DNA of 64,000 nt from Escherichia coli (GTDB lineage: Bacteria; Pseudomonadota; Gammaproteobacteria; Enterobacterales; Enterobacteriaceae): assembly GCF_003991155.1 (NCBI RefSeq), contig NZ_CP031293.1, one strand, 5' to 3'. The notes below the pieces were generated by a model. The model saw only the letters and a program-made list of their open reading frames with translations, had not been told where the DNA came from and did no database searches. This document shows positions 1-13,964 of the stretch, piece after piece (positions within the stretch are counted from its first letter, which is position 1; each line of letters starts with the position of its first letter). The translations under genes and the position numbers were made by a program.

Positions 1-4273
<4,273 letters not shown>

Positions 4274-9898: not shown

Positions 9899-9974
9899 TG
9901 GTGGCCCCTGCTGGACTTGAACCAGCGACCAAGCGATTATGAGTCGCCTGCTCTAACCACTGAGCTAAGGGGCC
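9899..9974 (-). tRNA. ileX: tRNA with CAU anticodon, consistent with tRNA-Ile2 (lysidine-modified)
   Basis: Reverse complement reads GGCCCCTTAGCTCAGTGGTTAGAGCAGGCGACTCATAATCGCTTGGTCGCTGGTTCAAGTCCAGCAGGGGCCACCA: cloverleaf, CAU anticodon, encoded CCA. Confidence 0.85.
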
Positions 9975-10098: not shown

Positions 10099-10605
10099 AT
10101 GGTTGAGGATATTTTGGCTCCAGGGTTACGGGTCGTGTTTTGCGGTATCAACCCTGGGCTTTCATCCGCCGGAACGGGTTTTCCCTTTGCTCATCCGGCA
10201 AATCGCTTCTGGAAGGTGATATATCAGGCCGGGTTTACCGACCGTCAGTTGAAGCCGCAGGAGGCACAGCATCTGCTGGATTATCGTTGTGGCGTCACCA
10301 AACTGGTAGACCGTCCAACGGTGCAAGCCAATGAAGTGTCAAAGCAGGAGCTGCACGCAGGCGGGCGTAAGCTAATTGAAAAAATAGAAGATTATCAGCC
10401 GCAGGCGTTGGCGATTCTGGGCAAACAAGCATATGAACAGGGATTCAGCCAGCGCGGTGCACAGTGGGGGAAACAAACGCTCACCATTGGTTCGACGCAG
10501 ATTTGGGTGCTGCCAAATCCCAGTGGTTTAAGTCGCGTTTCACTGGAGAAACTGGTTGAAGCGTATCGCGAGCTGGACCAGGCGCTGGTAGTGCGTGGGC
10601 GATAA
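10099..10605 (+). CDS. mug: G/U mismatch-specific DNA glycosylase
   Basis: 168 aa, ...[27 protein letters not shown]... UDG family 2 motif. Confidence 0.9.
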
Positions 10606-10612
10606 AAAACGC

Positions 10613-10625
10613 CACCGAAAAGGTG
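10613..10625. repeat. Left 13-bp target-site duplication (caccgaaaaggtg) of IS4 copy 2
   Basis: Identical 13-mer at 10613-10625 and 12052-12064. Confidence 0.85.
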
Positions 10626-12051
10626 TAATGCCAGTCAGTTAAGCAACTGACTGGCTCTTTTTCGGGGCTGTGGGGTATTTCCAGGGCCTCTCCTTTACCA
10701 CTCTCGGGAAGGCCCTTTCCCTTCTTGTCGGTAATTTCACAAGTTGTCCCATACTTGCAAGATCGCGCATCAGCTCCGGTATACGTCCCGGTGAAGCGCC
10801 CTGCAATGTCATCAGCATTCTCATCACCATTCCGCATGATTCTGAGAAACTCAGTTGATTCGGCCAGTAACCTTTCAGATGTTCCGCCATTTTAATCATC
10901 TGATATCTCACCAGATTATAAGCCAGTAAGACACCCCACAGCTCTTGCTCCACAAGCTCCGGTTTTTTACTTCTCAGCGTCAGCCTGCTCAGTTGCATCG
11001 TCTGTTTTATCTCCCTGTATCCCAGTTCGATTTCCCAGCGATGACTGTACAGATCCGCCATTTCTCCTCCGGGGAAGCGCATGGCGTCCGTCATCGACGT
11101 CAGCAGATGGCAGACTTTTCCTTTGCGCGTCACGGTCAGCAGGCGGGCTGTCACTTCATTTCCCAGTCCCGGCCACTTTTTTCGTGCCTGCGGGCTGGTT
11201 TTCAGCTTCACCAGATGATCGCCTTTACCCAGTTTTCTGATCTCTTCATATTGCGCTCCCTTTCTGAGAGGTATCATCCAGTGGCGGTGTTCTCCCGCCA
11301 GGCTCCAGGCATTTAACAGTCCCAGTGAGTAATAACCTTTATCCATTAACGTCAGAGTGTTATCGCCGGTTTGTTCTATAAGTTGCTCAGCAAGCTCATT
11401 TTCGCTGTTCTTCATCGTGCCGAAGGCTGCAGCCGTCAGCAGATGGCTGGTCAGTTCCATCTGGCAGACCATTTTGACCTGCGGGTAGAGCGCCGGGTTC
11501 CCGGCATGTGTCTGGCGGGGGAAGGCTGCATCGTTCTCTGGTGTATCCGGTGTGCGCCAGAACACACCATCGATGGCCAGCAAGGTCAGGCCGCACCAGT
11601 GCGGATGCGGCGTGGCGTTATGCCAGAGCTGCGCTGTTTTCGTGAACACGCGGCGGACAGCCTCACTTCCCAGGCGCTGGCGGGCCTGAATAACGGCACT
11701 GGGGGCAACGAAGGGGCGATTGCCCGGCAGCATGATGTCCAGGCGATTCACAATCTGGTGAAGAGGTTCTTTACGCTCAAGCGCCATGCCAACAATACAC
11801 CAGACCATCATTTCGAGGGGAAGACGGCGCTTGCGTAGCGTTACAGTACCTGATTCGGCAAGGCAACGAGAGATGAGTTCGGGGTCGAGGTAATCCCCCA
11901 GAGAAGTCAGTGGGTTACGCAGAGAATCGTAACGGGATACCAGATCAAGAGCCTGTCCAATGTGCATAAAAAAATCCGGAAACAAGTGAGCGTTTCCGGA
12001 TTCTTACACAGCCACTGGATCGGTCAACTGATCCTTAACTGATCGGCATTA
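10626..12051 (-). mobile_element. IS4 insertion sequence, copy 2 (1426 bp), same orientation as copy 1
   Basis: Identical to copy 1 except one nucleotide (copy 1 pos 2412 g vs copy 2 pos 11339 t); own 13-bp target-site duplication. Confidence 0.93.
10639..11967 (-). CDS. insG: IS4 transposase (442 aa)
   Basis: Same protein as copy 1 with Lys at ...TLTLMD[K]GYY... Confidence 0.9.
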
Positions 12052-12064
12052 CACCGAAAAGGTG
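12052..12064. repeat. Right 13-bp target-site duplication of IS4 copy 2
   Basis: caccgaaaaggtg. Confidence 0.85.
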
Positions 12065-12120
12065 GCGTTTGTGCAGAGGGACTAGTGCCGGGTGCGGCGT
12101 AACGCCTGATCCGGCCTACC
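12065..12120. repeat. REP-like palindrome immediately downstream of rpoD stop
   Basis: tgccgggtgcggcgtaacgcctgatccggcctac. Confidence 0.5.
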
Positions 12121-12122
12121 GA

Positions 12123-13964
12123 TTAATCGTCCAGGAAGCTACGCAGCACTTCAGAACGGCTCGGGTGACGCAGTTTGCGCAGCGCCTTCGCTTCGATCTG
12201 ACGGATACGTTCGCGGGTAACGTCGAACTGTTTACCCACTTCTTCCAGCGTGTGGTCGGTGTTCATATCGATACCGAAACGCATACGAAGAACTTTTGCT
12301 TCACGCGCGGTCAGGCCAGCCAGCACGTCGTGCGTTGCCGCACGCAGGCTTTCGGTGGTCGCAGAATCCAGCGGCAGCTCGAGGGTGGTATCCTCGATGA
12401 AATCCCCCAGATGCGAATCTTCATCATCACCGATCGGCGTTTCCATGGAGATTGGCTCTTTGGCGATCTTCAGCACTTTGCGGATCTTGTCTTCCGGCAT
12501 CAGCATACGTTCAGCCAGTTCTTCCGGCGTCGGTTCACGGCCCATCTCTTGCAGCATCTGGCGAGAAATACGGTTGAGTTTGTTGATAGTCTCAATCATA
12601 TGCACCGGAATACGGATGGTGCGCGCCTGATCCGCGATAGAACGGGTGATCGCCTGACGGATCCACCAGGTTGCGTAGGTGGAGAACTTGTAACCACGGC
12701 GGTATTCGAATTTATCAACCGCTTTCATCAGGCCGATGTTACCTTCCTGAATCAGGTCAAGGAACTGCAAGCCACGGTTGGTGTATTTCTTGGCGATAGA
12801 AATAACCAGACGTAAGTTCGCTTCAACCATCTCTTTCTTCGCACGGCGGGCTTTCGCTTCACCGATGGACATACGACGGTTGATATCTTTAACCTGCTCG
12901 ATGGTCAGGCCGGTTTCTTCTTCAATCTGCTGCAGTTTCTGCAGGGCGCGATGCACTTCTTCAGAGACATCGTGCAGTTTTTCCGACCACGGCTTGTTCA
13001 TCGCAATTGCCGCGTTGAACCAGGTATCGCTGGTTTCGTTGCCGGTAAACAGGGTAATGAAGTTTTTCTTCGGCATTTTGCACTGCTCAACGCAGAGCTT
13101 CATGATCAGACGTTCTTGCGTACGAACGCGGTCCATCATGACGCGCATGCTGTTGACCAGGTAGTCAAACTGCTTTGGCACCAGGCGGAACTGTTTGAAT
13201 ACTTCAGACAGTTTCAGGATCTCTTCCTGAGCGGCAGCGTGACTGCGACCTTTCGCTTTGATGGTGTCACGCGTTACAACGTACTGAGCGCGCAGTTCCG
13301 CAAATTTTTCGCGAGCCAGTTCCGGGTCGATGCTGTTGTCATCATCGGCGCTGTCGTCATCGCCATCTTCTTCGTCTTCATCTTCGTCATCGTCCAGATC
13401 TTCCTGGGAAAGCTCAGAACCGACGTGAGTGGCGGTAGGTGCCAGATCTTCTTCTGCGTTCGGGTCAACAAAGCCGGTGATCAGATCGGACAGACGCGCT
13501 TCTTCTGCTTCAACACGATCGTACTGTTCCAGCAGATAGGTGATCGCTTCCGGATATTCAGCAACGGAGCATTGAACCTGGTTGATCCCGTCTTCAATAC
13601 GCTTAGCGATGTCAATTTCGCCTTCGCGGGTCAACAGTTCAACGGTGCCCATTTCACGCATGTACATGCGTACCGGGTCAGTCGTGCGCCCGATTTCAGA
13701 TTCCACGCTGGAAAGCACCTGCGCGGCGGCTTCGGCAGCATCTTCGTCCGCGGTGTTTTCAGCCAGCATCAGATCATCGGCATCCGGTGCTTCTTCCATC
13801 ACCTGAATGCCCATGTCGTTGATCATTTGGATGATGTCTTCGATCTGATCTGAATCGACGATATCTTCCGGCAGATGGTCATTGACCTCGGCATAGGTCA
13901 GATAGCCTTGCTCCTTACCACGGGTGACAAGAAGTTTCAGCTGTGACTGCGGGTTTTGCTCCAT
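12123..13964 (-). CDS. rpoD: RNA polymerase sigma-70
   Basis: 613 aa, [36 protein letters not shown]..., acidic region 1.1 and 2.4/4.2 regions. Confidence 0.97.

Follow-up and report, generated by a model that had tools for sequence, protein, structure and literature searches.

An IS4 insertion in the terminator-like hairpin between rpoD and mug of Escherichia coli

When an insertion sequence (IS) splits the hairpin at which a transcript is expected to end, do the neighbouring genes then read into the element? The question is raised by a 64,000-nucleotide stretch of an Escherichia coli genome (assembly GCF_003991155.1, contig NZ_CP031293.1), here called the window, whose positions are used throughout. 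In this window a copy of IS4 lies at the meeting point of two convergent and intact genes, mug on the plus strand and rpoD on the minus strand. The original prediction for this DNA was that the element had split the rpoD terminator, leaving rpoD transcripts to read into the transposase gene in its sense direction and mug transcripts to read into the other end. We instead favour, with a probability of about three in four, an ordinary IS4 insertion into a preferred terminator-like site, in which the native hairpin was destroyed and hairpins facing inward from the ends of IS4 limit the run-on.

IS4 splits the hairpin between rpoD and mug

By every feature tested, the element is IS4 (IS4 family, IS4 subgroup). 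The identification made at the outset is upheld by its length of 1426 bp, its inverted repeats, the Pfam domains of its transposase and its closeness to the annotated IS4 of K-12 MG1655, from which 5 of 1426 nt differ. The two ends, TAATGCCAGTCAGTTAAG and TAATGCCGATCAGTTAAG, are 18-bp imperfect inverted repeats with 16/18 positions identical. The sole open reading frame (ORF) of the element encodes a transposase in which 2 of 442 amino acids differ from K-12 InsG, with the domains Nterm_IS4 (7.6e-33) and DDE_Tnp_1 (1.1e-31). A perfect 13-bp direct repeat, CACCGAAAAGGTG, brackets the element, a length within the 11-13 bp expected for IS4.

Joining the flanks and dropping one repeat gives the empty site GATAAAAAACGCCACCGAAAAGGTGGCGTTTGTGCAG, which holds the hairpin AAACGCCACC-GAAAA-GGTGGCGTTT. 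A mismatch between this reconstruction and the uninterrupted locus had been named beforehand as a possible refutation; what we found is a hairpin identical to that of K-12 MG1655 (8 single-nucleotide polymorphisms (SNPs) in 862 nt, 0 in the hairpin) and 100% identity to strain 2016C-3878 across all 862 nt. The restored RNA, read in the rpoD sense, has a 10-bp stem and a 5-nt loop and runs into U6, the complement of the A6 run at 10604-10609, so that it has the GC-rich stem-loop and U-tract of an intrinsic terminator; it folds at -16.5 kcal/mol (z = -5.5 vs shuffles). In the mug sense the tail is merely UUUGUG.

The direct repeats and the reconstruction together confirm that the duplicated 13 bp are the tip of this hairpin (4 bp + 5 nt + 4 bp). 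As had also been proposed, the 10-bp stem is split, its halves now lie 1.4 kb apart and each junction retains a 4-bp stem. Folding of the reconstructed and the interrupted sequences bears this out, with z = -5.5 for the intact hairpin vs -1.2 and -1.7 for the CACC/GGTG stems left at the junctions (-7.7 and -5.9 kcal/mol, respectively). Since a CACC/GGTG stem is kept at each junction, one could suppose that these remnants still terminate rpoD or mug transcripts. We find this scarcely credible and have rejected it, given that -5.9 to -7.7 kcal/mol is the level of shuffled sequence and that the next bases are UAAUGCC rather than a U-tract.

Recurrence at rpoD/mug and the target choice of IS4

The rpoD/mug hairpin is a recurrent IS4 hot spot in E. 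coli. Among 5,425 complete E. coli genomes having the locus, 5,349 have an uninterrupted site, scored as coverage of the empty-site query of at least 80%. Full-length single-piece alignments place IS4 at the locus in the orientation of the window in 38 genomes, and a query with the IS inverted recovered 38 more with the element in the opposite orientation. As 5,425 minus 5,349 leaves 76, which equals 38 + 38, every interruption of the rpoD/mug spacer in this collection is IS4. A base-level comparison of 9 genomes showed the same junctions and the same 13-bp duplication whichever way the element points, while the flanks differ by 1-65 SNPs over ~2.6 kb and the IS4 copies by 0-6 SNPs. Since both orientations occur at one base pair, IS4 must have inserted here independently at least twice, and the spread of flank haplotypes suggests further events.

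Could all 76 genomes descend from one ancestral insertion, spread by descent or recombination at a site that is no hot spot? The IS4 copies are nearly identical (0-6 SNPs) and some carriers are clonal, for instance N779 and N780, as such a history would have it. Nevertheless, we consider it very improbable. The 38:38 split of orientations at the same base pair and flank haplotypes up to 65 SNPs apart led us to reject it, and the site is never interrupted by any other element. Moreover, opposite orientations and different IS4 alleles are found on near-identical flanks: fS54a and CFSAN029787 differ by 1 flank SNP, yet they carry IS4 in opposite orientations and with 6 SNPs between the copies. 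In two carriers of the opposite orientation, ST95-32 and RMDEC465, mug is annotated as shortened and as frameshifted, respectively; the change lies inside the coding sequence (CDS) and not at the IS junction. We found no mention of the rpoD/mug site as an IS4 insertion in the searchable literature.

The coincidence of duplication and hairpin tip, which had seemed notable at this one locus, turns out to be a rule of IS4 target choice. An exact-match scan of metagenome contigs for the right-end tip of IS4 returned 120 loci with 72 distinct flanks, which we compared with 20,000 random positions as controls. Read outward from the right inverted repeat (IRR), these flanks have C at position 1 in 87% and at position 4 in 76%, and T at frequencies of 54-88% across positions 16-21. 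A T-run 16-21 nt from the IS end is present in 61/72 flanks (85%) vs 13% of controls. A palindromic tip, scored as 3 bp or more within the 9-14 nt nearest the IS, occurs in 49 of the 72 (68%) vs 9.8% of controls, and the two features occur together in 42/72 vs 1.3%. The same outward consensus was obtained from 36 distinct left-end flanks, of which 16 came from a genome scan of Kosakonia oryziphila.

The IS4 target is thus two-fold symmetric: an A-run, ~3 nt, the duplicated C-N-N-C...G-N-N-G, ~3 nt and a T-run. A bidirectional intrinsic terminator is built in the same way. The rpoD/mug site, AAAAAA-CGCCACCGAAAAGGTGGCG-TTT, fits such a pair of A-run and T-run ~20 bp apart, and the resident IS4 of K-12, with its 12-bp duplication, sits in a site that fits AAA-N20-TTT. 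Because either strand of the rpoD/mug hairpin matches the consensus, repeated insertion in either orientation is expected, in agreement with the 38:38 split. Mechanistically, IS4 would enter by cut-and-paste a type of site favoured by its transposase, and the tip of the palindrome would become the 11-13 bp duplication. A 96% variant of IS4, ISAeme15 (38%) and a Ralstonia element (37% protein identity) are likewise found in the tips of A-run/hairpin/T-run sites. Mayaux et al. reportedly described an AAA-N20-TTT consensus for IS4 targets in 1984. A 2008 review notes that the target arms are strikingly conserved in the IS4 subgroup; the word terminator is absent from it (PMC2266710). The insertion in the window is therefore an ordinary, well-populated instance of known IS4 behaviour, for which the occupancy of rpoD/mug has been measured here.

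Further IS4 copies were seen in the course of this work. The window itself holds a second one (1699-3124), 1 nt different from that at rpoD/mug, with the 12-bp duplication CAGCACTGTCCG (flanks 1687-1698 and 3125-3160). This copy occupies the spacer between ebgR and ebgA. A hairpin with a 12-bp stem follows ebgR closely (3128-3160), and the element lies between it and its T-run, so that the hairpin is intact but separated from its tail. In the same orientation this copy was found in only 3 complete genomes, at 98.7-98.9% identity and none at 100%. Strain 1517k (NZ_CP054388.1) is 100% identical to window positions 10200-12500 but is without the ebgR-ebgA copy, and an IS621 that it carries between aer and nfeR is missing from the window.

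Outside E. coli, an exact match to the 30-nt left end of IS4 is found on 16 contigs of Kosakonia oryziphila REICA_142, in most cases at the edge of the retrieved stretch or close to it. Most of the flanks show the A-run and hairpin-tip target, and IS4 appears to have expanded in this species. A 265-bp contig of Methylobacterium mesophilicum NBRC 15688, in which the IS4 left end continues into precisely the sequence that flanks the resident copy in K-12, looks like E. coli K-12 contamination of the assembly. Finally, five metagenome contigs contain full-length IS4 whose left and right flanks have no common duplication; one of these has the K-12 site on its left and another site on its right. 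Such copies could reflect recombination between IS4 copies or assembly chimeras.

Inward-facing hairpins at the ends of IS4

A hairpin followed by a T-run stands ~4-80 nt inside each IS4 end, so the predicted run-on transcription is probably small. Facing mug transcripts, 4 nt inside IS4, an 11-bp stem (GCCAGTCAGTT/AACTGACTGGC) with the loop AAGC (10630-10655) is followed by TCTTTTT. It folds at -18.7 kcal/mol (z = -4.6) and is as stable as the native hairpin that was split (-16.5). Adams et al. (2021), mapping transcript 3' ends in K-12 by Term-seq, list a 3' end at 4502127(+) as 'antisense insG' (PMC7815308, supplementary file 1). The entry occurs three times in a file whose tabs correspond to the three growth conditions. 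K-12 IS4 starts at 4502090, which makes this 3' end nucleotide 38 of IS4, equivalent to window position 10663; this end of IS4 is identical in K-12, and by the printed sequence the 3' end falls on the C after TTTTT. The IRR hairpin thus has a stem-loop, a U-tract and a 3' end in vivo, the last measured in K-12. Transcripts in the mug sense would stop at ~10663, 38 nt into IS4, and the mug 3' untranslated region (UTR) would grow from ~35 to ~58 nt.

A Rho-termination region at 4502176(+), also antisense to insG, lies 49 nt past this 3' end, at about window position 10712 (PMC7815308, supplementary file 2). It speaks for another explanation, in which it is mainly Rho, working on untranslated or antisense RNA within IS4, and not the hairpins, that halts read-through. 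We regard this as doubtful. The 3' end is discrete and lies at a T-run, so that it looks like the product of an intrinsic terminator, and near the left inverted repeat (IRL) the tables list no Rho region in the transposase sense (PMC7815308). Rho would more likely be a backup for the fraction of transcripts that escapes the hairpin.

The hairpin that faces rpoD transcripts lies between the IRL and the transposase gene. Its core stem pairs AAUCCGGAAAC (12002-11992) with GUUUCCGGAUU (11983-11973), with GCUCACUU between them, and it runs into U7 (11974-11968), after which the transposase AUG follows at 11967. With a stem of 11-15 bp, -18.8 kcal/mol and z = -6.0, it too is as stable as the split native hairpin and has the stem-loop and U-tract of an intrinsic terminator, while its 3' arm also covers the weak GGA ribosome-binding site before the ATG. 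The consensus terminator scan passed it over, probably because the U-tract can be taken up in pairing with A-rich sequence further upstream, and direct folding revealed it instead. Neither IS4 hairpin is represented by a family in Rfam. Transcripts in the rpoD sense would stop in U7, at ~11968-11974, ~80 nt into IS4 and just before the transposase ATG, and the rpoD 3' UTR would grow from ~80 to ~150 nt.

The only promoter-like site on the minus strand there overlaps this hairpin, its -10 element lying across the 5' arm (Table 1). Owing to this overlap, a transcript from the element's own promoter would lack the arm and could not form the hairpin, and would thereby escape it. Incoming transcripts would form the full hairpin and would either terminate or have the weak GGA sequestered.

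A similar layout recurs among relatives of IS4. In four of the five that we examined (the 96% variant, ISVvu2 at 50%, ISAeme15 at 38% and an E. coli plasmid element at 39%), a hairpin and T-run abut the start codon, and reading their sequences reveals a shared order of TTGA(C/A/T)C, a -10-like hexamer abutting the hairpin, the T-run and the start codon. The stems have one change in the 96% variant and are different in ISVvu2, ISAeme15 and the plasmid element, for example AAAC/GUUU vs AACC/GGUU; two of the stems are unrelated. The Ralstonia element (37%) is arranged differently: its hairpin and T-run arise from the inverted repeat itself and lie far ahead of the start codon. As judged from sequence, the recurrence of a hairpin before the start codon supports a function for it. 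IS4 shares its inward hairpin at the IRR with the 96% variant and ISVvu2.

How, then, does the proposed read-through fare? On that account the terminator is split, rpoD transcripts continue across IS4 in the sense of the transposase gene, whose expression they raise, and mug transcripts enter as antisense RNA. Its premise stands, as the native hairpin is disrupted and the residual stems are shuffle-like and without U-tracts, and the lack of a measured 3' end at the IRL hairpin would also suit it. However, a strong inward hairpin with a T-run waits at both ends of IS4. For mug, the in vivo 3' end at the IRR T-run in K-12 argues against read-through; for rpoD, the counter-evidence is a predicted hairpin that leads into U7, buries the GGA and has an equivalent before the start codon in 4/5 relatives. 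We therefore consider wholesale read-through of IS4 improbable.

We return to the explanation that we prefer, an ordinary insertion whose run-on is limited by inward hairpins, and to several observations that weigh against it. The native hairpin is a probable rpoD terminator by its sequence and, reportedly, by older literature. The curated and thresholded K-12 Term-seq lists hold no 3' end for it at 32149xx or 32150xx, a negative result that is weak given the thresholding, and they have a strong 3' end between rpsU and dnaG at 3211076 (PMC7815308). Nor do these lists hold a 3' end for the IRL hairpin at 45034xx or 45035xx; no gene is known to transcribe into the IRL end in K-12, so that a missing 3' end there says little. 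The transposase promoter and a start near 11993 are consensus predictions, and the one start-site dataset that we searched has no entry for the insG start. The inward IRR hairpin is absent in 3 of the 5 relatives, the three more distant ones, and is thus not conserved across the subgroup. Lastly, some read-through past the IS4 hairpins is likely.

Table 1. Features of the rpoD/mug locus and its surroundings (positions in the window; a point in the strand column marks features without strand)
Feature	Position	Strand	Basis and remarks
tRNA-Ile (ileX), upstream of mug	9899..9974	-	Rfam
mug CDS (G/U mismatch DNA glycosylase)	10099..10605	+	Intact, stop TAA 10603-10605; ORF list and RefSeq annotation of identical locus
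Left part of split hairpin	10607..10625	.	5' arm AAACGCCACC 10607-10616, loop GAAAA, GGTG = first 4 nt of 3' arm
Target-site duplication, copy 1, CACCGAAAAGGTG, 13 bp	10613..10625	.	Direct-repeat search
IS4, 1426 bp	10626..12051	-	IRR 10626-10643, IRL 12034-12051; 16/18 inverted-repeat positions match
Inward-facing IRR-end terminator of IS4	10630..10663	+	Terminator scan and folding; faces mug transcripts; expected 3' end 10663
IS4 transposase gene, 442 aa	10639..11967	-	ATG 11967; longer TTG start of the ORF finder (11985) not used
IRL-end hairpin and U-tract before transposase ATG	11968..12005	-	Inverted repeat and folding; predicted terminator and Shine-Dalgarno (SD)-sequestering structure; faces rpoD transcripts
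Promoter-like site for transposase	12000..12027	-	Promoter scan; -35 TTGACC 12027-12022, extended -10 TG-N-AAGAAT at 12005-12000
Target-site duplication, copy 2, CACCGAAAAGGTG, 13 bp	12052..12064	.	Direct-repeat search
3' arm of split hairpin, GGTGGCGTTT	12061..12070	.	Now 1.4 kb away from partner arm
REP-like palindrome between rpoD stop and hairpin	12064..12116	-	Weak Rfam naRNA4 match (REP-derived), 28.2 bits, below gathering score; recognised by eye
rpoD CDS (sigma-70)	12123..13964	-	Intact; ORF list and RefSeq annotation of identical locus

On the strand opposite the tRNA-Ile gene, Rfam also returned a spurious match to 'Plastid-ycf2'.

Terminator-like targets and related systems

For the locus itself the effect of the insertion is probably small: rpoD and mug are intact, and the most likely change is a few tens of nt of added 3' UTR. 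More generally, the long-known symmetric consensus of IS4 amounts in practice to a preference for intrinsic terminators, by an element that carries terminators of its own. This leads us to a broader proposal, to which we assign even odds, that IS4-subgroup elements are dedicated seekers of bidirectional intrinsic terminators and bring replacements with them. At the left end this replacement would be a terminator integrated with the transposase promoter, to which IS4 itself would add a second one, also facing inward, at its right end. If this is true, insertion would be nearly neutral for the flanking genes while the transposase is kept insulated, and the repeated, either-orientation occupancy of terminators such as rpoD/mug would be explained. 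We did not find this idea of seeking and replacing terminators stated in the literature searched.

There are also practical uses. Annotators may expect IS4 at the 3' ends of convergent genes and need not presume that termination is lost there. The presence, absence and orientation of IS4 at rpoD/mug could serve as a cheap marker for strain typing, and this is a small, well-defined system for asking how a symmetric target of 30 bp is recognised by a DDE transposase.

Compared with the classical IS4 insertion sites, which reportedly include galT and the pheST attenuator, the insertion in the window involves the same element (5 nt from K-12 IS4) and the same arrangement, a duplication of 11-13 bp centred between an A-run and a T-run. 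A literature search on IS4 with the pheS attenuator found nothing. In IS10 and IS50, a fold-back structure near the transposase start forms only in transcripts that come from outside, as the element's own promoter lies within or after the 5' arm, and the transposase is in this manner insulated from neighbouring genes. The arrangement predicted for IS4 would likewise insulate its transposase. The block in IS10 and IS50 is translational, whereas the IS4 hairpin with its U7 looks like an intrinsic terminator as well. Experiments on such insulation in IS4 were not found in the literature searched. The left end of IS200 has a rho-independent terminator that stops impinging transcription, and an end-proximal terminator is thus common to both elements, although IS200 belongs to an unrelated family (IS200/IS605, HUH type) with a different target choice.

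Other mobile elements likewise use intergenic palindromes 3' of genes as low-cost sites. IS1397, ISKpn1, IS621 and ISRm22 do so at REP elements and class C group II introns after terminators; ISRm22 is itself a member of the IS4 family, and all of its copies are in REP elements (PMC1525189). The recognition mechanisms of these palindrome-targeting elements differ, and IS4 enters the hairpin tip symmetrically and in either orientation. We infer that this symmetry is compatible with a symmetric transposase dimer that reads its target as double-stranded DNA.

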